From contig NC_057746.1 in assembly GCF_004010195.1 (NCBI RefSeq), positions 28,925,861-28,989,860 on the forward strand: a stretch of DNA of 64,000 nucleotides, in the 5' to 3' direction. The stretch comes from Chiloscyllium plagiosum. Its lineage: Eukaryota. The position numbers and the translations under genes were made by a program. The notes below the pieces were generated by a model. That model was not told the DNA's origin. It did not search any database and was given only the letters and a program-made list of their open reading frames with translations. Shown here piece after piece: positions 1 to 47,465 of the stretch (position 1 is its first letter; each line of letters opens with the position of its first letter).

Positions 1-124
1 CTACCTTTACCCCCACCCTTTCCCCTTCAATTTTGCCACTTCTCTAATTTGTCTCTTTCTCACCACCTTCTCCCTTTCCTTCCATTTCTCTCCCTTTCCT
101 CCTGTCCTCTGTCTCTCGATACAG

Positions 125-244
125 ATTCCTTCTTCCCCGGTGTTTCCGGATGGCTGACAGCGTTCTGGATCCTGTTTGCTCTGACTGTTGCAGTAGTCAC
201 TCTCACAGTGTGGTACCATCGGAGATTACAGAATAAGATTCAAG
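125..244 (+). CDS. Gene 1 transmembrane exon (DSFFPGVSGWLTAFWILFALTVAVVTLTVWYHRRLQNKIQ)
   Basis: Pyrimidine tract then acag|, 120 nt, donor |gtgaca; hydrophobic helix; closely matches 31010-31129. Confidence 0.9.
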
Positions 245-1983
245 GTGACAAACTGAGCTCAAACTCTGAGAACTTTTTGCAAAAACTAATCATGAACTGA
301 ATCTAATAATTTGTTAAAAGAAAGTAAAACAGTGCTAGAAATACTCCACAGATCAAGCAGAAGCTGTGGAGAGAGAGGTGGGCACGGAGAACAATGTTAA
401 TATTTCGGGGAATAAGATTTCATTTTTAGTGAGGTGTGCAATGAACAGTGTAATGAGGAGCCTGTTCATTGCAGTCTGACTCTGATGGCATCTCCCGAGG
501 TCATGGTGCCCATTAGATTCATTAATTTATTTGATTTTCTTTTCCAGGCCTCAGGAAATCTGAAGGTAAATGATGTTTCTTCAGCCTGTGGGACATGTGC
601 TGATGTTACACTGACTCTAGCTGTTGAGGAATTTCACACACTCACCCTGACCTTTACTGTTTCTGTCCTGAGAGCAGTCAGACCCCTTCCTGTATGTTGC
701 TGATCTTACCAGTCACCTGGAGGGTCCATCGGTCTGTTCCTGTTGGTCCTTTCTGTGAGTATACCCTTTCCTTCACACACACCCTCCTGACCAGATTCTC
801 TATCCCATTCTGACGTTTCCTGTTGTGACAGTGCTGTACCTTTAAGAGAGAGATGTTCTGCACCTGTTTCCTGTTGCAGAGGCATTTCGTCAGAGTGGTC
901 ACATAATGCCTCCTTCAGATGGGAAGTTGGTAAACTGTGTTTAATTTCTCTCTGGGTATTTGTTTTGAAGAATAATAAGGGAGTGGTGAGATGGCTCACA
1001 CAGACCCAGAAGGGCAATTTTATTTAATGAGATGGTTTCAACAGGTTGCTGAGCTAAAGGCTTGAGTTCTTGGCTGCTAGAGTGAAGTCTTACACAATGA
1101 GTGTTCCTGCTAGACATCAAAAGAGGCAGTTTATTTCTTTGGTCTGGACTGGAAAGAGACTCTCCATAAGAATCAAAACTGTTTTGCTGAATTGATGTCA
1201 AAGAGTGTGCTTTGTGTCTATGTTGGATCATTTGATTAGTGCTTAAATATTGCAATATCTTGTTAAGTATTTCAATAGAGTTAAAGTTATTCCAATTCCT
1301 TTTTAGTTGTATTTTAACTGTGTTATAAGAATAAAGTGTGTTTTGATTAAAGTCCAGTAGTGGGCCAATTGAATCACATCTGTAATACAGTGCCTTGCAC
1401 TAGCTGTAAAATCATTATAAATGTTAGTGTCTCTTTACAATACTTTATGTGGGGTTGAGGTGTACGGTATAGTCCATAGCATTCTCTCCCAACTCTCTCA
1501 ACTTCCTCCCCTGTTTCTTTCCACTCTCCCGTGCTCTCTCCCACTTCTCTCCCTTCCATCTATGCTCTTTCTCCCCCAACTCCCTACTTTTTCTCATGTG
1601 AGTCTCTTCACCTCTCTCATCTTCACACAATGCCCTCTCTCACTCTCTCCCCCTCTTCTCCATGCAACTTTCTTTCAATTTCAATTGTACAGGTCCTCTC
1701 CTCCTTTCTCATCCTCTTGCTCCTTCTCCTCTCCCTCCTCCTTCCTTCTCACCTTCACCTTTCCTCTCTCCCAAACACCCACTCTTCTTCAGTTCCTCCT
1801 CCTTTCTTCCTGTCCTCCTCCTCTTCCCCTCTCTAAACCTTTACCTTTTCAGATTCCTTTTAGAGTCAGGGAGAGTGGATGATGTGATTTGGGTGACACA
1901 CGCTGCTCTGGGGATGGGACAGTGTTCAGTGTGAGGGGAAAAGAGATGCTGCTAATTTAATGTTTTCTTTTGACCAGTTACAG

Positions 1984-2004
1984 AACATCAAAGGTTGCTG
2001 GATG
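1984..2004 (+). CDS. Gene 1 21-nt micro-exon (EHQRLLD)
   Basis: ttacag|aacatcaaaggttgctggatg|gtgagt; flanks align to the gene 2 exon 33078-33104. Confidence 0.85.
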
Positions 2005-2139
2005 GTGAGTAATCCTTAGTTACCAAAAACCAGATGTAATTGGATTGGGAAATTCAATGATGTGGACATGTATCAGAGAAAAGTTTGTGAACCTGTAATC
2101 CCGAGGCTAGTGATATAATGGATAATAAAGTGATTGTCT

Positions 2140-2835
2140 GAGTCATACAGTCATAGAGCCATAGCGATGTACAGCATAGGAACAGACCCTTTGGTCCAAG
2201 CTGACTAGATATCCTGAACTAATCTAATTCCATTTGCTAGCACATGGCCCATATCCCTCAAAATCCTTCCTATTCATATACCCATCCAGATGTTTTTTAA
2301 ATGCTGTAATTGTATCAGCCTCCACCACTTCCTCTGGCAGTTCATTCCATACACACACCACCCTCTATGCAAAAACATTGCACCTCAGGTCCCTTTTATA
2401 TCTTTCCCCTCTCACCCTAAAGCTGTGCCCTCTAGTTCTGGACTCCTTGTCTATTTACCCTATCCATGCCCCTCATGATTTTATAAACCTCTATAAGGTC
2501 ACCCCTCAGCCTTTGACGCTCCAGGGAAAACAGACGCAGCCTGTTCAACCTCTCCCTGTAGCTCAAATCCTCTACCCCGGCAGCATCCTCGTAAATCTTT
2601 TTTTGAACCCTTTAAGTTTCACAATATCCTTCCGATAGGAAGGAGAGCAGAATTGTATGCAATATTCCAAAAGTGGCCGAACCAATGTCCTGTACAACCA
2701 CAACATGACCTCCCAACTCCTGTATTCAATACTCTGACCAATAAAGGAAAGCATACCAAACATGGCCTTCACTATCCTATCTACTTGTGACTCTACTTTC
2801 AAGGAGCAATGAACCTGCACTCCAAGGTCCCTTTG
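2140..2835 (-). mobile_element. CR1-clade LINE 3' fragment
   Basis: LYRTLVRPLLEYC...RFTRMLPG reverse-transcriptase C-terminus plus the typical 3' tail. Confidence 0.85.
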
Positions 2836-4750
2836 TCATGGAATCATGCTTTGTTCCATCTCATCATTGCTGACCAATTTTCCCAAACTTATCAGACCGA
2901 TTTGCCTGCATTTAGCCCATTTCCCTCCAACCCTTTCCTATTCATGTAATTACTCCAAGGCATCACAAAGAGTTGAGAGCAATGCTAGAAACGATTTCCT
3001 CTTAGTGGATTTTTTTACACCGTTATCGAAAGGGTCCAAAAATGTTCTTTGAAAAGAAATTAAATAATTATTTGCTAAAGAAGAATATCAGTGGATAGGT
3101 TGAAGGTTTTCATGTGTTAACAATAAGAAAGATTCGCATTTCTATAGTTGGCATGAGCTGTCAGTCTGATCACGACGGATTTACTTCCCTGCACTATCCC
3201 ACCTGAAGGCTCGAATATTTATTCTATATTTTGGATTGATAAAGTGAAGAATTCAGAAGATTTACAATCTGTTGAGTGAGGAACTTTCTCCCCATCAGAG
3301 TTGTGAATGGAAAAGATGGGTTTCAGAACAGCCAGTGAGTTGGGATTGAGAATCTGAAGTAGTAGGAGACTGTCAATACAGTGTGTAAATTGGAATAGTC
3401 AGTTTCTCTCCAGATAATCTTCAGATTAACATACACTCCTCCTCCTCCCTGTAACTGAGTGAAACACGCAACTTCTTTTTTATTGGGACAAGTGTTTGTG
3501 AACAAATTGCTTTCACAGTCAATACTCTTCACAATTCTACAAATAGTCAAATAATATAACGTTTGCCATATTTCCGTATCTTCTGATTATTTCTAACCTT
3601 CTGACATTCTGTTGTGGGGAATTACAACCTCACTGGAGCAGAGGAATAATGTGTTCCTTACAGCACAGTTTTCTCTAATTCAACACTCTCTGACTGGGGT
3701 CCCACATTCTAACCTGTAAACTTGAGGCCACCTGACCCTCTGCTGCCTGTGTCTTCACTCATCCCAAGTCCCACTCTCCTGCTTGCTGACCTACATTGGC
3801 TCCCAGTTAAACAATGTCTCATTTCTTAATTTCTCACCCAGTTCTCCAATCCTTTCATGTCCTTACCTTTGCTGCTCTGAAACTCCTCTAGTCCTTCAAC
3901 CCTGCAAGATATCAGTGCTTCTCTAATTCTGTCCTCTAGCAGACCCCAATTATGTTTGCTCCTTCATTTGGAGATGCAGTGTCAGGTGACTCAATTCCAA
4001 CCCATACTCCCCCACCCCAATCTCACTTTCTCCCTTAAAGACATTCCTTAAAAACCTACCTCTTTGAAAAGATTTTGATCACCTGACCTAACATCTCACT
4101 GTATAGCTCTGTCATATTTTAATCCTATGTGTATGAATAATTTTGATATTTTTAACAGAAAAACAGGCATTCTATAAATATAAGTTGCTGATGTATAATG
4201 TAGATGTAGTATATTATCTGACAGGTGAGCAATACCACATTAGATTAGTAAGGACATAACAATGCAGGAAATAGGAGCAGATAGGCCATCTAGCCACTTG
4301 AGAGAATAAGACCATGGCTGATCTTTTTCATAGACTCAGCTCCACTTACTTGCCCATTCATCATAACCTTTAATTCATTTACTGTTCAAAATCTATCTAT
4401 CTTTGCTTTATAAACATTCACTAAGATAGCCTCAACTGCTTTACTGTGGAGGGAATTCCACAAACTCACAATCCTTTGGGTAAAGAAGTTCATTCTCAAC
4501 TCACTCCTAAATCCACTCCTCTTTATTATGAGATTATGCCTCCTAGTTTGTATTTCACTTGTCTATTCCCTTCATAATGGATGTTTTTTTTTAAAACAAA
4601 TTATTTTGTAAAGTATATTCACCTTCAAAAAAAATCTCCAATCAAGTAATGTTTAGTTTTTCAGTGATATTTCTGGTGTAATTAATGTTAGATTTGAATT
4701 ACCTTGCTCCACATATGACAAATTTCGCTCTCATCTGTTTTTCTCTTCAG

Positions 4751-4777
4751 AAATTGAGAAACTTCAGCAGAAGTTAG
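4751..4777 (+). CDS. Gene 1 27-nt micro-exon (EIEKLQQKL)
   Basis: ctcttcag|...|gtaaga; flanks align to 37190-37216. Confidence 0.85.
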   Translation, partial: KLRNFSRS

Positions 4778-4948
4778 GTAAGAGATGATTCCCAAAAGTT
4801 CCACATTCGGGGATTTGAGTTTCACCTCATATTCAGCACCAGTATCTTCATTTTAGAAAACTCTGGCATGAAATTAAAATTTGTTAATGAAGTGAAGTCT
4901 GTTGAGTGGGATTTATTCAGACTATTCAAATTCTCTGTTTCCTTTTAG

Positions 4949-4975
4949 AGCAATGGAGGCCTCTGGTCCAGTCAG
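4949..4975 (+). CDS. Gene 1 27-nt micro-exon (EQWRPLVQS)
   Basis: ccttttag|...|gtatgt; same peptide as 41720-41746. Confidence 0.9.
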
Positions 4976-5304: not shown

Positions 5305-5331
5305 AGTGGAACAGGATACGGAGCTATGCAG
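5305..5331 (+). CDS. Gene 1 27-nt pre-B30.2 micro-exon (EWNRIRSYA)
   Basis: tttgcag|...|gtaaaa; identical to 42990-43016. Confidence 0.9.
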
Positions 5332-8420: not shown

Positions 8421-9442
8421 CGACAGGGCTGTTTGTATTTTCGCTGTTGTCTTTTCCAGTTTCAAAGTTGAGGCCAGGTGGTCTGTCCAGTTTCATTTCT
8501 TTGTTGTGACTTTCTAGCAATTGATAAAACTGAGTGCCTTGCTAAGCTATTCCACAGGGCAGTTGAGAGTCAACCACAGTACTGTGGTTCTGGAGTCATA
8601 TGTTGGTCGTACCAGCTAAGGATGGCAGATTTCCTTCCCTAAAGGGAAATCAGTGAACCAGATGGGTTTTTCAGACAATTGCTAATGGTTTCATGGTCAT
8701 CAGTTAACTCTTAATTCCAGATTTTTTTTATTGAATTCATAGTCCACCATCTGCCATGGCAGGATTTGAACCCAGGTCCCCAGGACATTATTCTGGGTTG
8801 CTGGATTAATAATCGGGTGATAATACCACTAGGATACTGCCTCCTCCTGCACTCCTTCCTATTTGAAGTACTCAACCTCCCCAACCCACTTTTTCTGATA
8901 CTCCTCACACTTCCCTCTCCCTCCCCTTCCTGATCTCCTACCTCACTTCCCCCTCTTGTCCCTTTCCTCTCCCTCCCTGTTTTCCTTGAATTGAGTAACC
9001 AGCTTTACTGTATACTCAAATGAGTACATCGAAAAGTTTGAAGTAACATTTCGGATAGAGTGAATTCTGAGGAAGGGTCTCTCCACCCGAAATGTTAACG
9101 CTGATTTCCCTTCACAGATGCTGCCAGACCTGCTGAGCTTTTCCAGCGATCCCTGTTTTGACACTGAAACGTTTATAATTTGCAGTTTACAACACCACCT
9201 TAGGTACATTCCCAAATTACAGAATAGAGAAAAGTTCCATTACAGCGATACACAAGAAGCAAACATCAGAGTCCCCCTCCAAAGTCTTTCCTGCAGCAGA
9301 CCACGGAAGGGGGAACCTTCTCATGGTCTGACCATTGGCTGTCCCCGCTCCCAGACCGGGCCACTCCCGCCACGGTCTGCATTGGGCCGCTGCTCCTCAG
9401 AGACCCCGCCTCCTTCACCCTCCTCTCTCTCCCTCCCTCTCC

Positions 9443-10239
9443 CTGACGGTGTTATTTGATCTCTCCCCCAGCTCCAGCCTCTCTGACTCTGGATCCGAAC
9501 ACAGCGCATCCCCGGCTCATCCTGTCTGAGGACCGGACCAGTGTGAGACTCGGAGACACAGAGCAGCTGCTCCCTGACTCCCCGGAGAGATTTGATTCCT
9601 GTCACTGTGTCCTGGGATCAGAGGGATTCACATCAGGGAGACATTACTGGGAGGTGGAGGTTGGGGAGAAGACGGAGTGGGGTCTGGGAGTGGCCCGAGA
9701 GTCTGTGGAGAGGAAAGTGAGGACCTTCCCGAGACCGGATTCTGGATTGTGTGGCTGGTACCCGGATGTGGTTATTTAGCCGCCACCTCCCCCTCACGGA
9801 CCCCCCTCTCCCCGAGTGTGAATCCCCGGAAGATCGGGGTTTTCCTGGACTATGAGGGTGGACAGGTGTCATTTTACAATGCGGACACCATGTCCCATCT
9901 CCACACTTTCACCCACACTTTCACTGAGAGGATCTTTCCCATCTTCAATCCGGGAGGGAATGACGGCGGGAAAAACTCCGCCCCGCTGACAATCTGCGGG
10001 ATTAAAGGGCACTGACAGATCCATCCCATAATTTCACCCCGTCCCCCTGCCTCCTGCCAGCTGTAGACTGATGGGGGTCGGTCTCAATCTGGAGGAAAGA
10101 AGGAGGGGGAGAGAAGAAACAAAGAGAAGCTCAATTGTAGAGAGGGACTGACTGGGTAGAGTGAGCTGTGAGCTGCAGGAACCCGGGGACCTTCCTGCCT
10201 GTAATGTTGCTCCACAGGCGGGAGGTGGCGTTACATGAC
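9443..10239 (+). repeat. ~0.8-kb duplicated block (acceptor, B30.2 exon, 3' flank); inverted copy at 50949-51733
   Basis: Direct by-eye alignment from ctgacggtg to tacatgac. Confidence 0.9.
9472..10015 (+). pseudogene. TRIM-type B30.2 (PRY/SPRY) terminal exon with internal frameshift
   Basis: ORF 9456-9779 gives [21 protein letters not shown]...[26 protein letters not shown] 9677-10015 gives PETGFW...[32 protein letters not shown]. Together they make one B30.2 domain split across two frames. Acceptor ctctcccccag| at 9471. Confidence 0.9.
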
Positions 10240-10294
10240 GGTGTTGGGGATGTATCAGTCAGTGGTTCTAAGACTTGGGCTCAGGGGAGTCGTT

Positions 10295-10430
10295 CGAGGG
10301 GGGACACCAAATCATTTCACTGCAGGGTCAGAGGAGTCTTTCCTGGGGGAGACCAAATCATATGCCTGCAGGGTCAGTGGGATCTTTCCGGGGGGGGGGG
10401 GGGAGAGACCAAATCATTTCATCGCAAGGC
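10295..10430 (+). repeat. ~45-bp tandem repeat, about 3 copies (ggggagaccaaatcat...gcagggtcag)
   Basis: accaaatcat recurs three times. Confidence 0.7.
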
Positions 10431-26362: not shown

Positions 26363-26402
26363 ATGTTTCTTCTGCTCTGGATTCTCGTTTGGATCTTTCA
26401 TG
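26363..26402 (+). CDS. Gene 2 signal-peptide exon (MFLLLWILVWIFH; exon probably starts 26319)
   Basis: ATG plus hydrophobic stretch, donor catg|gtaggg; joins in frame to VVTAEA of the IgV exon. Confidence 0.8.
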
Positions 26403-29400
26403 GTAGGGAAATACATCTGCAAGATACAAAAACCCGTTTGCTCTTTTGTATTTTGCTGTTGGGATCACTTGACAAGTCATTGAACCCTGAGCTAGAATTT
26501 CTTCTGTTTCTCACTCTTCATGTTTATCTATTCCTCACTTTGTTTTTGTCTCTTTGTCTCCAATCTCTGCCTCTATCCCTCACTGTCCCTCTGTCTGTCC
26601 TTTTCCACCACTCTATTTCTCCCTCTCTGTTCCTCCCTCTCTGCCTCGCCCTCTTACTCTGTTACAAATGTTAATATACAGCTGTGATCTAAGCGATGAC
26701 CAGTTGATCTGACTCTCTCTCCAGTGGTTACTGCAGAAGCGGTGACAGATTTTGCAGTGACAGGACCACCTAACGCTATCATAGGGGTTGTCAAGGGAAA
26801 CGTGGTCCTGGATTGTCAGTTGGTGCCAGCCAAAGCCCCAAAGAATATGGAAGTCCGCTGGATCAATACAGTCAATGGCTACAACTCACCTGTCCACATG
26901 TACAAGGAGGGAGCAGATGATTTGACATTCCAGCCTTTGGCCTACAGAGGCCGGACTGAACTGTTTCTCAATGAAGTGGCGCAAGGGAATCTCTCCCTCA
27001 GGCTCAAGGATGTCCAAGTCTCTGACGGGGGACAGTACAAGTGCTTTGTGGCATCTGATGAAAAACACCATGAGGTCAAACTCACGCTGAATGTGGCAGG
27101 TCAGTGACCATTTTGGAAACACCCTGTTTGACCTCCTCAGTGAAGGGTTTATTAAGGTGAAGGATTAAAATTCCTCTAAACCCTGATAGAGCAAAAATAG
27201 TTTGAGACCCTGACAGGATCAACACTGAGAGTCTATTTGAGGAATGTAGAACACAGGGACGCAAACTCAGAATAAGGGGACCATCACTTGGCACAGAGAC
27301 GAGAGGTTAATGTGGAGGCCAAGTAGTTGAGTGTATTTAAGATAGAGGTTTATAGGTTTTTGATTGGCAAAGGGATCAAGTGTTATGGGGAGAAGTCAGG
27401 AAAATGGGTCTGAGAAACATATCAGTCATGATTGAATGGTGGAACATAAGCGATTGACCAAATGGCCAAAGTTTGCTGATATATCATATGTTCCAACACC
27501 TGGCCCGTAGACCTGTATGCTTCAGTACTGTAAAAGCACATCTAAATAATTCTAAAGGCGTGAGTTGTGGATTCCCACCACCCTCTGAATGAAAACATTT
27601 TTCCTGACATCCTCTTGAACCCTCCTGCCCTTCACCTTAAATCTCTATCACCAGGTCATTGAACCCTCCACCAAGGGAATAAGTTTCTTTCTGTCTACCT
27701 TAATCTCTGCTCTTCATAATTTTATGTATCTTCTAATCATGTTTTCCCCCCACCACCCCTCCCCATCTGTCAAATTTGGGGCGGCACAGTGGTTAGCACT
27801 GCTGCCTCACAGCACCAGGGTCCCAGGTTCGGTTCCAGCCTCGGGCGACTGTCTGTGTGGAGTTTGCACATTCTCCCTGTGTCTGCGTGGGCACGCTCTG
27901 GTTCTCTGGTTTCCTTCCACAGTCCAAAAATATGCAGGTTAGGTGAATTGGCCATGCTAAATTGCCTGTAGTGTTAGGTGAAGGGGTAAATGTAGGGGAA
28001 TGGTACTGGGTGGGTTGGTCTTCGGAGGGTCAGTGTGGACTTGTTGGGCCGAAGGGCCTGTTTCCATACTGTGAGTAATCTAATCTAATCTCAGTTGCCT
28101 CTGGTCAACAGAAACAACTCCAATCTGTTTAAACCTGAAACAATTTTTAAAAAAAACGGACTGGAGAAAACCTGGAAATCTGACAGCATCTGCACAGGGA
28201 GAGAAACCAAGTTAGTAAGACTTTTTAAAGAGGGAAAAATTCAGAGGATTCCATCCATTCTTCCCATCTGGGATTGTGATTTTGCTTCTTTGAAACCATG
28301 GTCGAGAGTTTTGGTCTTGACATAATTGTCAGGGCAGCATTAACTTACTGTTAAATAAATTATGTCTTTGGTCTGACTTGAGTTCCATAAGTTTCCAGGA
28401 AAACCCATTTGCAAGTTGTTAATACTAAATAGTTCATAGGCACCTGCAAATGTGTTTAGTCACTGAAATTTTGAACAGAGACGAGTCCACCTTGTGAGGT
28501 TGTACACTTTTTGTGCGGAGACTATTTTCTTAACAGAGAAAGGTTTCAGAAATCTGAAGTGCAAAGGGACTTGGGAGTCCAAGTTCCTGATTCGGTTAAG
28601 GTTAACGTGCAAGTTCAGTTGGTAGTTTGGAAGGCAAATGTACTGTTGGCATTCGTTTCAAGATGGGTAGAATACAAGAGTAGGGATTTATTGCGGAGGC
28701 TGTATAAGGCTCTGGTTAGGCCTCATTTCAAAATTTGTAGGGTGGTTTGGGCCTCTTTTCTCAGGAAAAATGTACTGATGTTGGATGCAGGTCCAGAGGA
28801 AACTTATAATGACTATCCTGGGGATGAAGAGCTTTTCACATAGGAGAAGTTGAGGACCCTGGGCTTGTACTGGATGGAGTTTAGCAGGATGGGAGGGGTC
28901 TTCAGATTGAAATTTACAGAATACTGAGAGGCCTAGATAGATTTGTCGTGGAAGAGTTGTTTCCACTAGTAAAGGAGACAGGACCCAAGGGCAAGCCTAA
29001 GAGAGAAAGTATAACCTTTTAGAACTGAGATGAGGAGGAATGTGATAATCATTGTTACATATGGTTGCGGAGACTAAATCATTGAATGTATTTAACATAT
29101 AGATGGATGGGCTCATAAGGGGATGAAGGGTTACAGGGAGAAGATGAGAGAATGGGGTTGAGAAACATATGAGCCATGATTGAATGCAGTGCAGACTCGA
29201 TGGGCTGAATGGCCTAATTCTGCTACTATGTGCTATGGAGCACTCTGGATTCAAATCGGGTTAAAGTAACTTTAGAACAATGCCAGAGAACCATGTTCTG
29301 ATCCATGCAAGTCAGTGAATTTATAGTGAATTAAAAATTTCTGCGATGTTTATGCAATTTAAAAAGTTGTACTTGACTATTTTTTAAAAAAACTTCATCC

Positions 29401-32400
29401 TGTGGCCTCTTTGAAGGCCCAGAAACAAGGGTTATTTGTAAAAACTTTGCCCTGGTGTCTAATTTGTTCCCTGGGTAATTCCTGTCTGGACTGTTCCTCT
29501 CTCATCTCTCTGAGTGTGGTTTCTTCCTCCCTCCTTGCCCTGACAGATTGTGATCGAACCCTGGTTACCCTGTGTGGAGGGGATTATGAAAGCACAGGTC
29601 AGCTGCAATCTGACCGAGTGGTGTAGGGAGGCCATGACAGACTTTGCGGCCTACTCCCCTTCCTGATGTCTCTGTGATTGCAGGTACAGGCCGCCAGCCC
29701 AGGATCGAGCTGGAGGGCCAAACGGGCGCTGGCATCAGACTGGGCTGCAGATCCGAAGGGTGGTACCCACAGCCGCCCGTCCTGTGGGTAGATGGAGGTG
29801 GTGTGAACGTGACGGCCCAGCAGCAAACCACGTACCAGCCGGACCCTCAGGGGCTGTTCACTGTCAGCAACTCCATCAAGATCTCCAAGCACTCCCCCAA
29901 CAAGTACACTTGTGTCATTAACAATGTGATCCTGAAGGAGACACAGGAGGGTCACATCCAGATCGCAGGTCAGTCATGGTGGGAGAAGACTTTCCCAGAT
30001 ACTCAGCGGGCTGGGGGAAAGGACTTGAATCAAATTATTGAGAAATATAAAAGCCCGAGGAAATGCTGTGATTGAAATAGGCTCCTCATTGCCACTTGTC
30101 TCTGACCAGGGCCAAGGTCAGCCTCTCACGGCTACAGCTTGCCCGTCGTGGCAACAAAAAAGGCATTTTACCAGGAGAGAGGGAGTGATGGAGATTTGAG
30201 AGAGAGTGAGAGACTGCAACAGAAAGCGAAGGAGAGGGTGTGATGGAGAGAGAAGGAGAGGGTGTGATGCAGACTGGGGGAAGGAGAGGGTATGACAGAA
30301 GTGGGGAGGGAGAGGGTTGAATTGAGTTTGCGAAAAGAGAGAGAGGTGATGGACAGAGAGTGGTTGTTGGAGGGAGAGGGAAATAATGGAATGGTGGGTT
30401 CAGGAGAGGGAGATGAGTAAAGGAGGAGGGAGGGATGGAGAGGGGAGGGGTGATATAAACTGGAAATGGGGTGTGCCAATGGCTTTGTGTTAACTCAAGC
30501 AACTGGTTCATTTTCTCAAAGTCTCCCTTTTTCTGTTTTCCCCCATCCCCATCTCTCCCTTAATATCTTCCATTCTCCCTCTGCCTTTCTCTTTCCCCCT
30601 CTCACCCTTACTCTTTCTCCCTTCTCTCCTGTCCCACTTCCACACCTCCATCTCGCACCCCTTTCTTTCTCCATCTCTCATTCTCATCTCTTTCTTTTTC
30701 TGTATTTTTTTCCTTCTATCTCCCCATGTCCTCCACCTTTATGCCCATTCNNNNNNNNNNNNNNNNNNNNNNNNNNGGTGATGAAATGAGCAATATCTCT
30801 TTTTCTCTCTCTTTTTCTTTTTCTCTTTCTCCCTCATACACTGTCTCTTCCCTCCTCTCTTTCCTTCTCTCTCTTTCCTTTTCTATCTTTCTCCTATGCT
30901 CTCCATCACCCTCCCATCGTCCTCCCCCTCTGTCTCTTACTCCCATTCTCTCACTATCTCTGTCTCACTCTGACTGTCTCTGTCTCTCCTCATCTTTCTC
31001 TCGATACAGATTCCTTCTTCCCCGGTGTTTCCAGATGGCTGACAGCGTTCTGGATCCTGTTTGCTCTGATTGTTGTAGCAGTTGCTCTCGCAGTGTGGTA
31101 CCATTGGAAATTACAGAATAAGATTCAAGGTGACAAACTCTGCTCAAGCTCTTAGAACGTTTTTCAAGAATATTCGTAAACAGAATCTAATAAGTCATTA
31201 ACAGAAAATAAAACAGACAGTGCTTGTAACACTGCATAGATTAGGCAGAATCTGTGGAGAGAGAGAGACAGCGTTAGTGTTTCGGGGAAATAGGAGTATA
31301 TTTTTAGTGAAGTCTGTAATGAACAGTGTAATGAGGACCCTTTTCATTACGGTCCGACTCTGACTGTATCTCCCAAGGATATGGTGCCCATTGGATTCAT
31401 TAATTTATTTGGTTTTCTTTGCCAGGCCTCAAGATGTCTGATGGTTTTCTTGGTAAGTGATGTTTCTTCAATCTATGGGACATGTGCTGATGTTACACTG
31501 GCTCTTACTGTTGAGGACTTTCACACTCCCACTGTGACCTTTACTGTTTCTGTCCTGAGAGGGCTCCGACCCCTCCTGTATGTAACTGATCTCACCAGTC
31601 TCCGGGAGGTTCCCTCGGTCAGTTTCTGATCCAACCCTCAATTATCCAGCTGGGGCATTCTAGCATATAAACACTGCCTTGGTACCCGCACCCCCATCCC
31701 AAGACACTCCCTATCCCTTTCTGTTTCTTCCTCTCACCTAATTGTCTCTCTGCACTCCCCAACTCTCTACCCTGCTACTCTCTGCCCTCCCCCGCTACTC
31801 TTTTCCCCTCCCCAACGCACTCGCTTTCCTCTCCCCACCCCCACGCTCTCTCCCCCCACCGCGCNNNNNNNNNNNNNNNNNNNNNNNNNNNNNNNNNNNN
31901 NNNNNNNNNNNNNNNNNNNNNNNNNNNNNNNNNNNNNNNNNNNNNNNNNNNNNNNNNNNNNNNNNNNNNNNNNNNACATGTTCTCTTTCCCCCCCCATAC
32001 CGTCTCCTTCCCCTATCTTCCCCATTCCCTCCACACTCTCACCCCTCTCTGTCTTTACCTTATCTCTTCTCCCCAGTCTCTGCCTTTCCACCTCTCACTT
32101 TTCCCTCCTCCACGTTGTTCTCTTCCCGTTCTAATTGTACAGGGATTTGGTGAGATTGGAGCATTGAGTACAGCTTGTCTGCTTACCAGACTAAAGGTGT
32201 TCTGGTTGTGGACGTAGCACAATGTCGGCTTATCAGACTGTTGTGTGGGATAACAAGACTTGATCAATTAGATCTCTGAAGGGAGACTAGTTCACTTAGA
32301 ATTAATTTTTGGAGGTTCAAAGAATGAAGCTGAATCTCTCTACCCCTCTCTGTCTCTTTGCCCCTTTCCACCTGCACTCCTCATTCCATCAACTCCCATC

Positions 32401-35400
32401 CCATCCCCCCTACCCTGTCCCTCTATTTTCCCCACTCTACACCCTTCTCTCTACTCCTCTTTCTCTCTCTCATGCTCCTCCTCCCCCAACTTCTCCCTCA
32501 CTCTCTCCTTTCTCCTCCCCCTCTCTTCCTTCCTCACACTGCCTTTCTCTCTCTCTCGCTCTTTCCACATAGTTCTGCAATTACTTCTTGTCCTTTTTAA
32601 CTATTTCAGTGATTCCCTTCAGAAGGTTCCTGTTGAAAATCATGGGAAAAGAAAACCTTCTGGTACCTCTCTCATGTTTCTGTTTCCATTGTTTTGAGTC
32701 CATATCCTCTGTCAGTGACCCTCTCCCCAGTTTCTCTCCAGTTCATTCACTCTGATAACCAGACATTGGGTTCTTCTTCTTCTTCTCCTTCTTCTTCTTC
32801 TNNNNNNNNNNNNNNNNNNNNNNNNNNTCTCTCCCCCCCCTTCCTCCTCTCTTTCCCCCCCTTCCTCCTCCTCTCGCGCCTCCTTCCTGTGTGCTTCTCC
32901 CTCCTCCTCTTTTCCATTTCCTCCTCTCCCTCCCTTATATCTTTTAAGACTTTTTACAGTCGGGGAGAGTGGGTGATGTGATTTGGGTGGCGCACGTTGC
33001 CCTGGGATTGGGAAAGGGATAAGTGTGAGTTGCAAAGTGCTGCCACTGATTTAATGTTTTCCTTTGACTCATTACAGAACATGAAAGGCTGCTGGGTGAC
33101 ATGGGTGAGTTGCTGTTTGAAACATAAATGTGAAGGGAATGGGAAACCCAATGATGTGGAAATATAGTCACAGCATTTGAGAGAAGAACTCTAATCCTAG
33201 GCCTGGTGATGTAACGGTTAACAAATAGTTTGGGTTTGAAGGTCTTCATGGCATGAATAGTAAGAAATATTTGCTTTTCTGTAACACCTGTCACATTCTG
33301 AGAATATCTCAACGCATTTTATCGAAAATGATGTGCAGAACAAAATGAGAAGCCAGAGCAGGAGTCAGCTGGAGCAGGTTGAGCTGTTCCACTGTACAGC
33401 CTGATCTTGGCGGATTGACTTCTCTGCAATATCTCACGTAAAGAGCCTACATTTTTATTTTCCTGCATTTTTGATTGATGAGGCAAAGAATTCAGAAGAT
33501 TCACAGCCCATAGATTGAGGAGATTTCTCCTCATCGCAGACCTGAACGGGAAGAAAGGTTTTCAGAACTGTGGGTGGGTTGGCATTGAGAAGCGAAAGGA
33601 GGACGAGACTGTCGATATGTTCTGCAAGATGGAATAGTCAGGTTTTCTCCATTACAAAGATGAGTTTTATGTCTTGAATTAATTGTGGTTCTATGATGAA
33701 GTTTTGGCTTAAAGTTCCTATCCAGGGTTTGGGGACTAAACTCCAGGTTGACACTCCAGCACAGAGCTGAGGGAATGCTGCATTGTCAGAGGAGCTGCCT
33801 TTTAGATTAGGCTTCAATATGTGGTCTTTGAATGAATGGAAGCACATGCTGTGTCTCTAAGAAGAACAGATGAGGGCTCCCCAGTGTCCTGGCCAATATT
33901 TATCATGCGATTAACATCGGAGGAATGAAATGATCTGGTCATTGTCCTGGTTACTGTTTGTGGGATCTTGCTGTTCACAGGTTGGCTATGTAGAAGAATA
34001 CAGTGCAGAAGAGGCTTTTCAGCCCATCAGTCTATACTATAATGCTTCCTTTGTGATGAGATGTGCCTTTGAGAGGGATTTGTTCTGTCCTGGTTCTTGA
34101 AGAGAGGAATTGTAAACCTGGAGCCGAGGTGTCTGCTGCATGGACAGCAGAGTAAATAGCTTCTTCTTTAAAAAATTAAGCTGAAGAAGCCCGAGCACAT
34201 GGAGTCAGGCTCACAACGACCCAGCGTTTTAGTTTTGCTTTCAGTTGTTGAAGTTGGGGTTTTGGAGTGAAGCTACGAGATACAGCTCTCTCTTAGTTGC
34301 TACTAAAAGCTTACATTCCCTCTCTCTTTGCTGCTGGATTCATTCTGTTGGTTCCCCTTCTTCTGGACTGGAGGAGGTAGCAAGTGTGGAAAAACTGTTC
34401 TGCTGAATTTGCCTTCGCCAAGAGTGGGTTCATGGGATGCTGCAATATTGGAACAGTTGGTGTGTAGTAGTTAACTAGTATTTTATTAGGTCTTCAAGAG
34501 AGATAAAGTTGTGCCAATTCTTTGTTTTGAGTTTGCATTTTATTGTGGTGTCGGAATAGTGTTTTTCTCAAAGCCTGTTGGTTTGACCAATCAAGTCACA
34601 TTTACAAAGAAGGGCCTTACACTTGCCTCTAAATAAAAGTTCAGCTCTACGTTATCTTTTTATATGTTTGAGGAGGCTTGGTCTGGTCCATAACACATTA
34701 AATAGACAGTTCTGTTTCTATAAAACACTGGAGGACATATGGTCACTGTTAATTAAATCTAAATGAATCCTCTGTATTTTTCACCATTTCTTACATGGAT
34801 TATTTTTAAACTTTCAGAGCAAGAGAAGAGAAAGGTGAATGAAGGTTAGTAATCAGAAACCTGGGGATGCTGGGGACGGTTTCATTCAGACCCTGATTGT
34901 GTTTCTGTGCAGTTTCAAGACTGGAGTCAATTTCAAACCGAGATATTGCAAGGTCACTTTATTGTCATCTCATTGAGGTGTTTTCACGTTTTTTTTTAAC
35001 AGAGTATCAAAGACTGCACCAGGAGATAGGTAAGAACATGAAATCAATTGGATAGAAGGGAGTTGTGGGTGGATTATCCCCAGAGCAAGACAGTGGGAGA
35101 GTGATGGGAAAGCGGGATGGTAACTCTGACTGGGACCAGATTCTAGTGGGACAGAAACAGTCTTGGAACAACGTAGAACTCATTGCAAATCCCCTGATGG
35201 GTCTGCCATAAAGCAGGTGCTGAGTGAAGGAGTGGGTTTGGGCCTCTGCCTTTCTGGGAGCAAGAGGAGGACAGACTTTGACCTGGTTACTGTCGACTCA
35301 GGATCACATCGTTGTTTGTTTATTCCATTTCAGAGAACGCGAAGCAAGCAGGGAAAAAAGGTGAGTTATGTGAACACACGTTGTTTGGATTGTAATGTTT

Positions 35401-38400
35401 CATTTCAGCATCAGCCCGTCTGAAGACAAGTTAACAGGTTTGTAAATAACTGTTAATGGCCATATCACCCAAACTGTTCCATCAAAATGAACATTAAATT
35501 GTAAATGAACATTAAATGATGTGAAGTGGATGAGTTAATTCAGTCACTTCTTCACTGTGAGCTAGTTATGTTCATTGATCTCAGAACTGGGATCCTTGAG
35601 AAGCAGACTTTCCAGGAATTTCTTGAGTTGATGCGAACAAATCCCGGAGCTGGGAATCTGTGGATATCTAGAAATACACTCCTCTTTAAATCACTATTTA
35701 TTAATATTGCAGCAAGTCTGGTGTGTTCACTACTTTCCAAAATGCTCACTGATCGAAACTGCCAGCAAATGCTAGGACAGACTTAGCATCAGTTTTAAGA
35801 GGCACTGGATTTATGAGGATAGAGTCTAATCAGAGAGTGAACGGCAAAATTACTCTGCAGAGGGTGGCACGGTGGCCCAGTGGATAGCACTGCTGCCTCA
35901 CAGCGCTAGGGACCTGTGTTTGATTCCAGCCTCGGGCAACTGTCTGTGTGTACTTTACACATTCTCCCTGTGTCTGTGTGGGTTACCTCCCACAATCCAA
36001 AGATGTACAGGTTAGGTGAATTGGCTGTACTAAATTGCCCATAGTGTTCAGGGATGTGTCAGTTAGGTGCATTAGTCAAGGGTAATTGGTCTGGGTGGGT
36101 TACTCTTCAGATTGTCGGTGTAGATTTGGTGGGCTGAAGGGCCAGTTCCCACACTGTAGGAAAGAAAAGATTCCTATGATTTTGTTGTCTTTGCAACTTT
36201 GATAAAAAGGCTCATAAAACCTGAGCAGGATGCCTGGAGTTAATCACAGGCTTCTATTCAGAAGGAAGATTTAATCTTCCCATGAACACACACTCCTCCT
36301 GCTCCCTGAGATTGAGTGAGTTACACATTTTTTTATCAGGACATGTGTTTGTGAATCAGTCATTGATTTCATAATCGATTCTCTTCACAATTCTACAAAT
36401 AGTCAAATAACGTCTCCCATATTTCATTATTTTCTAGTCATTTCTAGTCTTTGACATTCTGATGTGAGGAAAAATGCATTCCTGACAACACAGTTTCATC
36501 TCATTCAACACCCTCTGACTGGGCTTTCACAGTCTAGCCTGTAAATTTGTGGCCATCCAGCACTCTATGTTTTCACTAACCCCTGTTCCACACCCATGTT
36601 TGTAGACCTACATTGGCTCCTAGTTGAAAAATGTCTCCATTCTTAATTTCCCACTCAATCCCCTCATGTCCTTGCCTTCTCTGCTCTGTAACTCTGACAT
36701 TCCTGTGCTCCTTTAATTCTAGCCTCTCGCATACCAAAAATTATAATTGTTCCTTCATTGGAGAGAACGGTTTCAGTTGCTTCAGTTCCAAACACTACAC
36801 CCCTACCCAAATCTCAATTTCCTTCTTTAAACACGGTCCCATGAAAACCTCCCTCATTGATAAAGCCTTTAGTCATCTGACCTAATACCTCACTGTGTAG
36901 CTGATATTTTTAAATGTAATATTTGAAGCATTTTGAGATGTAGTTGAAGAAAAACAGACTCTCTAAATGTATACGCAGTGTATTATCTGATAGGTGAGCA
37001 ATGCTATGCAAGAATTACTCATATAATAATTATTTTTAAAAAGTTTTTTTTGTCTAAACTTAAAAATATCTCTGAGAAATGATTTCAGGGATTTTTTTCA
37101 GTGACATTTCTGCTACAACCAATGATCTGATTTTACATTGCTTTGTTCTGCATATGACAAATTTTGCTCTTGTCTGTTTTTCTCTTCAGAATGTGAAGAA
37201 CTCCAGCAGTTGTACGGTAAGAGATCATTTCCAAAGCATTTTCTCTCTGGGTTTGGGTTCGCAGCTCATGTTCAGCACAGCTTTCTTCACCAGCATCGCA
37301 TTGGTCATGAGAAACTAAAGGCAATGTGGCGAAATACCCCAAGTTTATTCCTGGTGCTTTCAGCTTAATGGGTTTAGTTTTACTGGATATACCAAAGTGT
37401 TTGATGCCAACAGTCAGAGGTAGCTTTGTGCTATATCTAGTCCGTATCTGCATTTCCTGAGAGTATTTGATGGAACAGTAAAGAACAAGAAGATTTACAT
37501 TGTTCCTAACTATGCTGTACCTCCTGGGAATTTTTGATGGGGGTGGTATAGACAGACCTTCAATCTGATTCTAACCCTGTATTTTCCCTGACCCAGGAGT
37601 GTTTGATAGGATGGTTTTGAGGGAGCTTCACTTGATATCTAATTGTGTTATGCTGGAAGTATTTAATGGGACAGGGTAGAAGGATAGTTTTTATCCTGTA
37701 CCTAACCTGGTGGACTGGGTAATCTCATCACTGACCTGTGCAGGGCGAGGGTAGACCTGGATAATGTTCACCACATTCATTCCAGAAGCCTTGCAAGTGG
37801 TGGCATCTTCTAGAAGGTTCTATGCTTTAACATCTCTTTCTTTTCCTTTTTTACAGAAAAGAAAATGGCCATCATTATTGCAGGTAAGCAGGGAGCTGAG
37901 GAATTTCTGCTGGAGGAGAGGGACAGCAGATGTGTTATCAACTCTGGTTTGATGCACTTCTGGAGGTTTGGTCACATGACTTTGGTTGTGAGGAATTGGA
38001 GGAACAATCAAACAGGCCTTCCCCATCCCTCACTTTTTTTTCCCTCCAAACACCTTAATTATACCCCCTTGTGATAGCCATTTCTGTCCTAAAAAATCTC
38101 TGACTATTCACTCTGTCTCTGCCTGTCATCATCTTGTGCACCTCTATCAAATCGCCTCTCACCCTTCCTCGCTCCCATGAGAAAACCCTTAGCTTCCTCA
38201 ACATTTCTTCAAAAGACATGCCCTCCAGTTGAGGCAGCCTCCTGGTAAATCTCCTCTGCGCCTTCTCTAAATCTTCCACATGCTTCCTACAATGAGGTGA
38301 CCAAAACCGAACACAATATTCCAAGTGTGGTCTAACCAGGGCTCTGTAGAGCTGCAGCATAACCTTGCAGCCCTTAAACTAAATCCCCCAGCTAATGAGA

Positions 38401-41400
38401 GCCAACACACCATACGCCTTCTTAACAACCCTATCAACTTATTTTCTAAATTCAAAGACATTTAAATAATCCACACATTGTGTAATTCTGAGAGTTCCCA
38501 TTCCTGGGCAGTGGTCACTTTGACCAAGATATTGACCATTCCTTCCTGGAGAGTTGTTTCCCCGTGTTACTGAACATCTGTTCGTGTTCCAGCTGCTTCA
38601 TGTCTTCTGGGTTTTGTCTCTACTCTGAGGGAAAAGGCATAGAGTGAGAGAGATGTACAGCATGGAAACAGACCCTTCAATCCAACTCGTCCATGCTAAC
38701 CAGATATCCTAAAATAATCAAGTTCCATTTGCCAGCATTTAGCCCATATCCCTCTAAAGCTTTCCTATTCATATACCCATCCAGATTTGTTTTAAATATT
38801 GTAATTGTACCAGCCCCACCATGTCCTCTGATGGCTCATTCCATACACTCACCACCCTCTGCGTGAAAACATTTCCCCTTGGGTGCCTTTTAAATCTTAA
38901 GGTTTAAATGATCTTGTCTATTTATCCTCTTCATGCCCCACATGATTTTATAAACCTCCAGGGAAAACAGACCCAGCCTATTCAGCCTCTCCCTATAGCT
39001 CAAATCCTCAAACCTTGGTAACATCCCTGTAAATCTTTTCTCAACCCTTTCAGATTTCACAACATCTTTCCAATAGCATGAACTCTTCACTCCCCAGATG
39101 ATGCCAATGTTGGCCTGACCCAATGCTTGCCGTGGTATTCAGGTCGATGATTCCTGCTGTAGCTGGGGGTTTGCTGTGTGGGTACAGATGATACTGAGAA
39201 CCGTCGATTGGATTGGTGTTGCACTATCCACTGCTCCAGTTTGTGGTGGTAGATGCTTCCATGGGCTACTGCTGGTTCCTCCCAGACCGAGTGAGTCTGG
39301 CTAATGGAGACTGAGCTCAGAGCACAGAGGTCAATCTAGAGCACAGAGGACAACAAAAGATAGCAGAAAAAGAAGGTTGAGACATTGTGAAATTCAAATT
39401 TGTGATTAATGCCTCTCCCTTATCTATTACAGAACATGAACAATTTAAGAAACAAGTTGGTAAGTAATTTAATCAGAATTTTTATTTCTGTCGATGGCCA
39501 ATTCAAACCAAAGGCAGACTTACTGCAGCTCTTCCACAGTTCGTGCTCAGACTGGGGCCTGTTTCTCCATGTGTACTCAGTCTGGGGGCTGTTTCTCAGT
39601 CTCTGCTCAGGCTGGGGGCCTCTATCTGTGCTTGGGCTGAAGTCTGTTTCTCACTCTGTGCTCGAGCTGGTACCTGTTTCTCAGTCTGCGCTCAGCCTGG
39701 GGCCCGTTTTTCAGGCTGTGCTCAGGCTGGGGACCTGTTTCTCCGTCTGCGCTCGGGCTGGGGGCCTGTTTCTCAGTCTGCGCTCAGGGCTTAGGGGCCT
39801 GTTTCTCAGTTTGCGCTCGGGCTGGGGGCCTGTTTCTCAGTCTGTGCTCAGTCTGGGGGCCTGTTTCTCAGTCTGTGTTGGGGCTCAGTTACGTTACCAG
39901 TGTCGAGGAGCACACATTTTAGCCTTGATTTTCCATTTTATTAATATTGTATAATATCTCACTCGGGTCATTGTTCCATGCTATTGCTAAGTTCTTGATT
40001 CTGTCTTACAGATGAAGAGAGGGAGTCGGAGAAAGCAGGTATGTAACTGTGTGTGGGCCTGAAGAAGTGAAGTTCACCTCGACACTGGAGCAGGGAGGGA
40101 ACTGGGATGGTGCATGCTCTGACAGGGAACAGATTGAAAACCCAGAAGCAGACAGCAAATGCTTCTCTCTCTGCTAATTTTCATTCTCAGTCTCTCTGCC
40201 TCACTCGCATTTCATATTTTCTCTCGCTTTCCTCTCCCATTCTCATCTTCTGCTCCTCAGAATCTCTCTATCTGTCTCTCTCTCTGACACCCACACCCCA
40301 AATGCTCCCCAGGTTCTTTCTTTCTTTCCCTTTTTCATTCATTCTCTTCTGCTCTCCTTCCTCACCTTCGCCTTCTCTTCTGCTAATGTCTCTGCATCTC
40401 TGTCTCTCTTTTCCTCCTTGTGTCTCCCCATCCCTCTCCTCTTCCTGCTTGTTTTCTCCCCAGTTCTCCATCTCTCCCCTGCCCCCCCACCCCCAATCTC
40501 TACATCTATCTCTCCTTCTTTTCACAAAATGATTGGTTAGTGATCTAAAACAAAGAAACTCAGCAGTCCAGGGAACATCAGTTGAAAGAGGAAAAACTAA
40601 GTTAATGTTTCAAACCTATTTCATTGTTTTTGTACCATCTCCTTGTAAATCACTTGGTGCCCAAAGGCAGTATATGAACACAGGTCGGTTCATTTTTTGT
40701 TTGAAATCAGCTTTGGGAAATAACTACTGATAATAAAATTTGTATGTGTTGGTAAGTGTATAGTCAATTGTTTATTTGAAGATGTCAGCTCTTTGCTTTA
40801 ACCATTTCTGATCATTCCTTATTCACAGAATATCAGAAGCTACGCACTGAATTTGGTGAGTTAGCTGTCAGTAAAAATGTGCCTTCATCTTCAGCTCAGC
40901 TGCAGTTAGTAATTGAGCATAAAAAAAAAACAGGTTCAAGTCTGCACCATGCTTTCCCTCAGTTGGGTGTAATAATCTGGGATTGACTAGTCTCCCTCCT
41001 GGTGTTACAAATAACTTGTTTACTGAAACAGATTTCTAGACAGAGCTGCAGGCACTCATGAGAGATTGAACATCTAGAGATCATCATGTCTGTAAACGGC
41101 AACTTTGTAGAAAGTGATCTGGGCCTCCTCATTTTTAACTAAAATTATAGAGTCTGGATTCACTTTGAATTGATCACGTCCCAGTTAATAAACATGGATT
41201 GGGTATTTACTTTGCAGCAGGAAGACAAAGCTAGCTTTTATAAGGTGTTGCTGGGCAATGGGTCCAATTTTCGTCCCTTCAAATTTCGTTCAAGATGGAA
41301 ACTCAGGCAGTTCTATTGCAGGAGGCTAATCCTCCAGTGCTTCTCAGAAAATATACCCTTGCGTGTTCTTTACCAAATATGAAAATATTGGTGGGAGTTG

Positions 41401-47400: not shown

Positions 47401-47465
47401 TCTACCCATTCTTTTGGCCTGGCTGGGACAAGTCACCCTTAACTGTCTGTCCAGTCAAGAACTAG
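26363..47465 (+). CDS. Gene 2: complete butyrophilin-like type I membrane protein (SP-IgV-IgC-TM-long helical linker-B30.2), 544 aa, 16 coding exons
   Basis: Exons 26363-26402, 26725-27099, 29684-29968, 31010-31129, eleven 27-nt exons and 46948-47465 sum to 1635 nt. All junctions are GT-AG phase 1 with no internal stop. The domain order is diagnostic of the BTN family. Confidence 0.92.
26725..27099 (+). CDS. Gene 2 IgV exon (B7/BTN-type)
   Basis: FAVTGP...VVLDCQL..MEVRW...YRGRTELF...GNLSLRLKDVQVSDGGQYKCFV; acceptor ctctctccag|, donor |gtcagt. Confidence 0.97.
27779..28090 (+). mobile_element. V-domain SINE (HE1-like); further copies at about 35864-36160, 46150-46318 (-), 55460-55790 and 62767-63090
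   Basis: tRNA-like head, V domain, gggccgaagggcctgtttcc tail and (taatc)n end. Confidence 0.88.
28490..29240 (+). mobile_element. CR1-clade LINE 3' fragment
   Basis: QRDLGV..LYKALVRPH motifs. Confidence 0.8.
29684..29968 (+). CDS. Gene 2 IgC exon (BTN-type)
   Basis: GTGRQPRIELEG...IRLGCRSEGWYPQPPVLW...GLFTVSNSI...YTCVINN; acceptor ttgcag|, donor |gtcagt. Confidence 0.97.
30751..30776. other. Assembly gap (others at 31865-31975 and 32802-32827), all in pyrimidine-rich intron tracts
   Basis: N runs. Confidence 1.
31010..31129 (+). CDS. Gene 2 transmembrane exon (DSFFPGVSRWLTAFWILFALIVVAVALAVWYHWKLQNKIQ)
   Basis: 120-nt phase 1-1 exon with hydrophobic helix. Confidence 0.93.
33078..33104 (+). 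CDS. Gene 2 micro-exon 1 (EHERLLGDM)
   Basis: attacag| 27 nt |gtgagt. Confidence 0.85.
34052..34696 (+). mobile_element. Probable solo LTR; related pieces at about 980-1460 and 19880-20840
   Basis: TG...CA ends, internal AATAAA, similarity among the three loci; no TSD confirmed. Confidence 0.45.
34818..34844 (+). CDS. Gene 2 micro-exon 2 (EQEKRKVNE)
   Basis: ctttcag| 27 nt |gttagt. Confidence 0.8.
35003..35029 (+). CDS. Gene 2 micro-exon 3 (EYQRLHQEI)
   Basis: tttttaacag| 27 nt |gtaaga. Confidence 0.85.
   Translation, partial: SIKDCTRR
35334..35360 (+). CDS. Gene 2 micro-exon 4 (ENAKQAGKK)
   Basis: ccatttcag| 27 nt |gtgagt. Confidence 0.85.
37190..37216 (+). CDS. Gene 2 micro-exon 5 (ECEELQQLY)
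   Basis: ctcttcag| 27 nt |gtaaga. Confidence 0.85.
37400..37710 (+). repeat. Degenerate ~60-65-bp tandem repeat (gggagctttactctgtatctaac...ggagtgtttgat)
   Basis: About 4-5 recurring units. Confidence 0.65.
37857..37883 (+). CDS. Gene 2 micro-exon 6 (EKKMAIIIA)
   Basis: ttttttacag| 27 nt |gtaagc. Confidence 0.85.
38040..39080 (-). mobile_element. Two CR1-clade LINE 3' fragments
   Basis: LYRALVRPHLEYC..RFTR; 3' tail at about 38640. Confidence 0.8.
39433..39459 (+). CDS. Gene 2 micro-exon 7 (EHEQFKKQV)
   Basis: tattacag| 27 nt |gtaagt. Confidence 0.85.
39540..39890 (+). repeat. ~31-bp minisatellite (ctcagtctgtgctcaggctgggggcctgttt), about 11 units
   Basis: Directly visible tandem units; explains ORFs 39409-39954 and 39543-39794. 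Confidence 0.9.
40012..40038 (+). CDS. Gene 2 micro-exon 8 (DEERESEKA)
   Basis: tcttacag| 27 nt |gtatgt. Confidence 0.85.
40829..40855 (+). CDS. Gene 2 micro-exon 9 (EYQKLRTEF)
   Basis: attcacag| 27 nt |gtgagt. Confidence 0.85.
41720..41746 (+). CDS. Gene 2 micro-exon 10 (EQWRPLVQS)
   Basis: catttcag| 27 nt |gtatga. Confidence 0.9.
41790..42740 (+). mobile_element. CR1-clade LINE 3' fragment
   Basis: RT C-terminus and VWNELL..FKRNLG motif. Confidence 0.85.
42990..43016 (+). CDS. Gene 2 micro-exon 11 (EWNRIRSYA)
   Basis: ttttgcag| 27 nt |gtaaga. Confidence 0.9.
45005..46130. mobile_element. Penelope-like element with inverted terminal-repeat arrangement
   Basis: GIY-YIG NIIYKIPCKNCNKHYIGQ..RIHDH on -; about 45010-45410 is an inverted copy of about 45713-46100. 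Confidence 0.85.
46948..47465 (+). CDS. Gene 2 B30.2 (PRY/SPRY) terminal exon, intact
   Basis: ttcctag| AHVKMDPETANTCLMVSPD...NNPERFDSVPYVLGADGFTEGAHYWEV...IGVFLEVEAGRVSFFNA...FSEKVYPFFWP..LTVCPVKN*. Confidence 0.95.

Follow-up and report, generated by a model that had tools for sequence, protein, structure and literature searches.

A stretch of 64,000 nucleotides of the Chiloscyllium plagiosum genome, referred to here as the window, contains two butyrophilin genes, gene 1 and gene 2. Gene 1 is probably a broken copy belonging to a carpet-shark butyrophilin lineage in which seven tail exons have been lost and the original B30.2 exon has given way to one of TRIM type; its intact relatives are likely to be membrane receptors with a variable TRIM-like cytoplasmic domain. 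Gene 2 is of the long-tail type with a conserved butyrophilin B30.2 exon. The 5′ end of gene 1 lies ∼10 kb upstream of the window start. With 140 kb upstream and 60 kb downstream added to the window, a third close paralog, gene 0, was found ∼34 kb before gene 1. It has a 27-nt e0, a deleted e1, a frameshift in the IgV exon and a stop in the IgC exon.

Gene 2 spans positions 26363-47465, and its features are listed with those of gene 1 in the table. It scores above the cut-off for both PF07686 and PF22705 and has the IgV plus IgC ectodomain of a butyrophilin; its transmembrane exon, helical micro-exons and B30.2 exon share one open frame (model P0144). The IgV domain is 94% identical to bamboo-shark and epaulette-shark models, and between species the gene 2-type B30.2 is conserved at 95-96%. 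Two database models that bear the name Chiloscyllium plagiosum, P0079 and P0144, match the tails of gene 1 and gene 2 residue for residue. A 638-nt contig (run X23 record 16), which aligns at window positions 122-245, displays six listed differences that all fit the gene 2 transmembrane exon. Gene 2 is probably transcribed; that X23 represents RNA is a guess only.

Features of the butyrophilin genes; positions are those of the window except for genes 0 and 3, which are given on the contig
Feature	Position	Strand	Remark
Gene 0	G000:C37:28885830-28898983 (L008-L009)		short-tail chimera with an open TRIM-type B30.2
Gene 1 transmembrane exon	125..244	+	IgV at ∼-9770 and IgC at ∼-925, both upstream of the window
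Gene 1 micro-exon e0	548..565	+	18 nt; 3′ end 9 nt shorter than in genes 0 and 2
Gene 1 micro-exon e1	1978..2004	+	27 nt from gained acceptor 1978; 21 nt from old acceptor 1984
Deletion breakpoint 1	3412..3415	+	3412/33651 to 3415/36272 (gene 1/gene 2); e2-e4 gone
Gene 1 micro-exon e5	4751..4777	+	27 nt
Deletion breakpoint 2	4850..4851	+	4850/37289 to 4851/41622 (gene 1/gene 2); e6-e9 gone
Gene 1 micro-exon e10	4949..4975	+	27 nt
Gene 1 micro-exon e11	5305..5331	+	27 nt
Tract common to TRIM-family last exons	9409..10395	+	from 40-60 nt before the acceptor through the 3′ UTR
Gene 1 B30.2 exon	9472..10015	+	TRIM type
Gene 2 signal-peptide exon, coding part	26363..26402	+	agrees with the start of P0144
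Gene 2 IgV exon	26725..27099	+	
Gene 2 IgC exon	29684..29968	+	butyrophilin-type C2-set
Gene 2 transmembrane exon	31010..31129	+	
Gene 2 micro-exons e0-e11	31426..43016	+	twelve, 27 nt, phase 1; 108 aa, alternating two-exon repeat
Gene 2 micro-exon starts	31426, 33078, 34818, 35003, 35334, 37190, 37857, 39433, 40012, 40829, 41720, 42990		
Gene 2 B30.2 exon	46948..47465	+	conserved butyrophilin type
Gene 3	G000:C37:28995354 onward (L020-L023)		butyrophilin; candidate tail exons of 27, 24, 24 and 27 nt

Other butyrophilins are found in the neighborhood. An intact B30.2 exon was not found in gene 3, but 61 nt resembling the start of the gene 2 last exon are present downstream of it, and the database model P0144 merges gene 2 with gene 3. 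Two older butyrophilins (G000:C37:28829100-28873750, L011-L015) each have candidate tail exons of 27, 27, 21, 21, 27 and 27 nt. Of twelve other butyrophilin-like stretches of the genome that were scanned, three contain a B30.2 within the DNA fetched, and none of these is of the gene 1 type.

By its assembly sequence, gene 1 is a pseudogene in this genome. About 7 nt are missing from its B30.2 exon near 9716-9730, which results in a frameshift and a stop at 9777-9779, and a SINE of ∼330 nt lies within the IgV exon, with an in-frame stop at the SINE start. Intact IgV and B30.2 frames are therefore absent, as judged from lesions seen in the assembly only. The model of gene 1, P0079, is flagged as low quality and is without an IgV domain. 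The sister species C. punctatum has an intact gene model of 498 aa, P0142, and e0 encodes the identical six residues in P0079 and P0142.

An earlier note on this DNA had proposed that intron sequence of gene 1 jumps at two places relative to gene 2, with loss of seven micro-exons. Both jumps were located by BLAST of gene 1 against gene 2 where the note had put them, and with 60-nt flanks, 5 of the 12 gene 2 micro-exons are matched in the gene 1 interval and the other seven, all 27 nt long, are not. No trace of e2-e4 or e6-e9 is found in the intervals of either gene 1 or gene 0, and gene 0 additionally lacks e1. Tail lengths had been given as 34 and 99 aa; the tails are 40 or 42 and 108 aa, because the first micro-exon (548-565 in gene 1 and 31426-31452 in gene 2) had been overlooked in both genes.

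With 101,977 contigs the assembly is fragmented, and gene 2 is interrupted by small N gaps in three places, which might suggest that the missing exons are an artifact of assembly collapse, a possibility the note itself had raised. The probability of this is negligible. Gene 1 contains no N gap. Breakpoint 1 is spanned by contigs of two other organisms (X11 record 4 and X18 record 12) that are ∼95-96% identical, and breakpoint 2 by one contig (X11 record 5); gene 0 has breakpoint 2 in common with gene 1. In addition, the same seven exons are absent from full-length gene models of three other species: P0010 of Stegostoma, P0140 of Hemiscyllium and P0142 of C. punctatum.

The direction of change can be read from relatives, as the note had suggested. 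A twelve-exon tail is found in models from Heterodontus, Cetorhinus, Mustelus, Hemiscyllium and C. punctatum. As twelve exons are present outside the carpet sharks, the short tail is the derived state and arose by deletion. Because the long tail is internally repetitive, it could be supposed that the short tail is ancestral and that gene 2 gained exons. This is very improbable, as four further shark genera, including three that are not carpet sharks, have the same twelve exons, and the short forms are nested within carpet sharks in the ectodomain tree. In the C-terminal part of P0003 (Narcine) the tail measures 90 aa and is thus shorter than that of gene 2 by one pair of exons; besides the doubtful P0001, no other even-number change was seen in the long lineage. 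Pairwise exon loss in model P0001 was dropped as evidence, since P0143 of the same species has all twelve exons.

The tail of gene 1 also differs from that of gene 2 in the length of individual exons. Micro-exon e1 had been described as 21 nt in gene 1 and 27 nt in gene 2. The underlying loss of 6 nt at the 3′ end, before the donor, is real (relative to gene 2 33078-33104), but a second acceptor had escaped attention: gene 1 has a new in-frame CAG acceptor 6 nt upstream of the old one, and both database models of gene 1 (P0079 and P0142) take acceptor 1978 and with it a 27-nt exon, 1978-2004. The two acceptors have nearly equal scores, 8.6 for 1978 and 7.6 for 1984 (intron-only matrix, 35 cluster acceptors), and a second AG within 12 nt upstream is found in 0 of 35 other acceptors. 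Splicing thus probably gives gene 1 an e1 of 27 nt whose content is shifted, acceptor 1978 being favored, and because of this the interconversion of 21-nt and 27-nt exons put forward in the note is unsupported. The second residue of e1 is lysine in P0142 and threonine in gene 1, a difference that would change the old acceptor from CAG to AAG. As deduced from the protein only, the lysine is consistent with use of the upstream acceptor. The two small deletions of gene 1 (in 548-565 and 1984-2004) are both multiples of three, and both remove the last bases before the donor.

The tail exons display a helical periodicity. All five long tails tested have their peak over e1-e9 at 99-101 degrees per residue. 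The odd-numbered exons form one sequence class and the even-numbered exons another, the true alternation being the most extreme of 126 labelings. Together these point to an ancestral tail unit that, as read from the sequences, is a two-exon, 18-residue, five-turn repeat, of which the loss of three exons flips the hydrophobic stripe. The register arithmetic of the earlier note stands in this respect: loss of e2-e4 inverts the stripe, and the 6-nt loss brings e1 and e5 back into phase. Where e1 encodes 9 aa, the phase gap between e1 and e5 is 156 degrees in P0010 and 169 degrees in P0011; after the 6-nt loss, as in gene 1, it is 25-36 degrees whichever acceptor is used, and the hydrophobic moment of the joined e1-e5 pair rises from 0.15-0.18 to 0.54-0.59. 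A compensation of the register shift by the upstream acceptor was considered and rejected, as this acceptor adds residues before e1 and the e1-e5 phase is almost the same.

The note had gone further and proposed selection for the 6-nt loss, as a repair of the stripe broken by the three-exon loss. The changes in phase gap and moment are in keeping with this. The 6-nt loss is also present in the intact-frame model P0142, and gap counts reveal no 6-nt insertion across e1 in contigs of organisms B and C, so that the loss is common to them. On the basis of its presence in organisms B and C and in the intact P0142, the loss probably arose in a working gene, and late tuning of the register is conceivable. 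Gene 0, which lost e1 entirely, likewise arrives at an even count, and an alignment-based fold of P0010 breaks the helix at residues 281-287 (e1), with pLDDT under 50. Selection on register is nevertheless unlikely. The order of events does not speak for compensation, as the 6-nt loss is a single event that came long after the exon deletion. At 100 degrees per residue, two of eight trims of 1-8 residues would bring the stripe to within 45 degrees; heptad spacing places 29 residues 103 degrees off; and gene 0 is a pseudogene from which e1 disappeared together with more sequence, in a deletion that is undated. The note had also reasoned that register-breaking exon counts occurring at random in other paralogs would speak against the proposal. 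Such counts are found in part, in that the intact models P0010 and P0140, from two genera, keep the out-of-phase 9-aa exon 1, and P0140 is also without e10, a second odd loss. As the short tail tolerates both in-phase and out-of-phase exon sets, register is likely to be only loosely constrained in the short-tail lineage. As regards a possible coiled-coil dimer through the juxtamembrane tail, the periodicity of the tail is amphipathic; the tail models are of monomers only, and the single-sequence fold of P0142 has a pLDDT of 41.

Similarity between gene 1 and gene 2 ends at position 5687, and beyond an 82-nt patch the B30.2 exons cannot be aligned as DNA. The two genes are 87% identical in IgC and 80% in the transmembrane domain; their B30.2 domains are 46% identical, versus 93% between gene 1 and the best of 47 TRIM proteins. 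The last exon of gene 1 belongs to a family with at least 49 matches in the genome (40 of 210 candidates scored), which are 83-95% identical over long matches and are located mostly at 27.7-29.6 Mb on the same contig as the window. Among the 120 protein matches listed for the gene 0 exon, those of at least 78% identity carry a RING or B-box, with the exception of three Ig-bearing models of the short-tail lineage. TRIM 5′ exons are situated upstream in six of nine other copies examined; none was present in the fetched DNA of the remaining three. A tblastn search with the N-terminal part of P0068 detected no RING, B-box or coiled-coil exon between e11 and B30.2 of gene 0 or gene 1. Genes 0 and 1 are thus without the RING-B-box-coiled coil set of TRIM proteins but have a B30.2 that falls within the TRIM clade.

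Trees of the two ends of the protein are discordant. In the B30.2 tree (55 rows), the five short-tail domains are inside the carpet-shark TRIM clade (100/94), scattered among TRIMs. The AU test, which was run after inspection of the tree, the B30.2 split itself having been noted earlier, rejected short and long butyrophilin B30.2 as one clade (p-AU 0.0057) and did not reject the five short-tail B30.2 as one clade (p-AU 0.11). In the ectodomain tree, constructed without genes A and B, P0006, P0016-P0020 and the first half of P0003, the five short-tail genes are together (92/92, not starred) and are joined to the carpet-shark gene 2 lineage (98/99). The B30.2 of the short-tail lineage does not share the line of descent of its ectodomain.

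It might be argued that the TRIM-type exon is an orphan beside a truncated butyrophilin, the two being joined only by gene-prediction programs. Orphan B30.2 copies are present in the region (50949-51736), automatic models can merge neighbors, as P0144 does with genes 2 and 3, and an RNA junction between e11 and the TRIM-type exon was not seen; the sole X23 contig at the start of a TRIM-type exon fits another copy (L027) better. On the other hand, e11 has a normal donor and no stop, an in-phase acceptor follows 1.6 kb downstream in gene 0 and 4.1 kb downstream in gene 1, and in three species the models show an open frame across the join. The full domain set of a butyrophilin is contained in one protein in P0010, P0140 and P0142, all gene models, and the junction of e11 with a TRIM-type exon recurs in these full-length models from three other species. 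An orphan exon is accordingly quite improbable, and replacement of the butyrophilin B30.2 by a TRIM-type exon remains the preferred reading.

The tract shared with TRIM copies begins only 40-60 nt before the acceptor. We infer replacement of the whole exon through recombination in the last intron, before the Stegostoma-bamboo shark split. Identity of the gene 1 exon is 95.6-96.1% to two array copies versus 93.9% to gene 0, and the tract that it shares with array copies runs ∼140 nt further; for the two closest array copies, the fetched DNA contained no TRIM 5′ exons. The identity differences suggest that exchange of the borrowed exon with TRIM copies may be continuing, but they are small, and a single origin of the five short-tail domains was not rejected.

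Several related observations concern other B30.2 exons. The copy at window positions 50949-51736 (minus strand) consists of a broken TRIM-type B30.2 exon and 3′ UTR, 84% identical to those of gene 1; no TRIM 5′ exons for it were found within the window. In a second butyrophilin lineage (P0018 and P0019), the B30.2 is placed beside another TRIM family (P0033, 100/100), and two loci near 30.03 Mb and 30.61 Mb of the contig (G000:C37; L056-L059 and L081-L083) have B30.2 sequences 52-57% like that of this lineage. The P0018/P0019 lineage possibly represents an older, independent B30.2 capture. Gene 1 and P0142, which are presumed orthologs, are 76.5% identical in IgV and 94.7% in IgC; the C. punctatum paralogs P0142 and P0143 are 95.8% identical in IgC. 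This patchwork of identity points to either conversion in IgC or rapid evolution of IgV.

The following history is proposed. The ancestral gene would have had twelve micro-exons and been of the gene 2 type. Exons e2-e4 and e6-e9 may then have been deleted from a duplicate, whose last exon may have been exchanged with that of a flanking TRIM array gene through recombination in the last intron, a swap that would work because both last exons start in phase 1. A further duplication would have formed gene 0 and gene 1, after which gene 1 would have lost 9 nt of e0 and 6 nt of e1 and gained the acceptor 6 nt upstream; both genes would have decayed in this genome. The intact short-tail protein is predicted to be a butyrophilin of the type I membrane class, with a tail of 36-45 residues and a TRIM-type B30.2 with copy-variable loops. 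By analogy with mammalian butyrophilins, the swap would be expected to have changed what the receptor senses. A bolder and rather doubtful extension is that a functional butyrophilin persists in carpet sharks, its B30.2 undergoing continual re-templating from a large, variable TRIM array, and that it provides a surface receptor for the cytoplasmic targets of TRIM ligases that may relay to gamma-delta T cells, with capture perhaps having occurred at least twice in sharks and the tail later tuned into register in one branch.

The lineage with a TRIM-type B30.2 sensor represents a natural swap experiment. Matched pairs, a long tail with the conserved B30.2 and a short tail with the TRIM B30.2, are present in several species and offer a probe of sensing by non-mammalian butyrophilins. 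As natural in-phase and out-of-phase tails coexist, the question of register is directly testable. Whole-protein trees of shark butyrophilins blend two histories.

Butyrophilins (BTN/BTNL) of cartilaginous fishes are listed in passages of a 2026 survey, together with a variable number of repeats after the membrane (PMC12841164); the portions of this survey that were examined do not treat B30.2 origins. Sections of PMC10665462 describe mammalian butyrophilins in which the B30.2 senses a cytoplasmic ligand inside the cell and the tail governs chain pairing, and, for human BTN3A, a juxtamembrane coiled coil that controls the choice of dimer. The shark genes are like BTN/BTNL in having IgV, IgC, a transmembrane segment, short helical exons and B30.2. 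They differ in the tail repeat, which is 18 residues in two 27-nt exons compared with a heptad per exon in BTN/BTNL, and the short-tail lineage differs further in that its B30.2 derives from a TRIM expansion. In chicken BG genes, as described in parts of PMC4046983, PMC5938342 and PMC8813856, the number of tail exons varies and hybrids of 5′ and 3′ ends form via recombination. The shark genes similarly have many small tail exons in paralog-variable number, but in chicken BG most of these exons have 21 nt, 18 or 24 being occasional, and there is one Ig domain and no B30.2; with two Ig domains, 27-nt exons and a B30.2, the shark genes do not belong to this family.

A portion of PMC11788884 names butyrophilins among the domain shuffles of jawed vertebrates, and the available part of PMC7348870 adds no shark content. 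No description of a TRIM-to-butyrophilin B30.2 swap was found in the literature searched, for the most part papers outside subscription journals. A related system is the shark TRIM expansion with the database label 'zinc-binding protein A33-like', whose B30.2 exon, acceptor and 3′ UTR share 83-95% nucleotide identity with gene 1; unlike these TRIMs, gene 1 is without RING, B-box and TRIM coiled-coil exons. At the squamate harbiTRIM locus, TRIMs, butyrophilins and orphan PRY-SPRY exons adjoin and PRY-SPRY recombination takes place, according to passages of a preprint (PMC12262214) that do not describe a butyrophilin with a TRIM-replaced domain. In zebrafish, a single-exon B30.2 has been shuffled between finTRIM and NLR genes, as reported in sections of PMC2657112. 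The shark case resembles this system in that a B30.2 exon moved between an expanded TRIM family and another immune family, with discordance of trees. It differs in the recipient, a membrane butyrophilin that replaced its existing B30.2.
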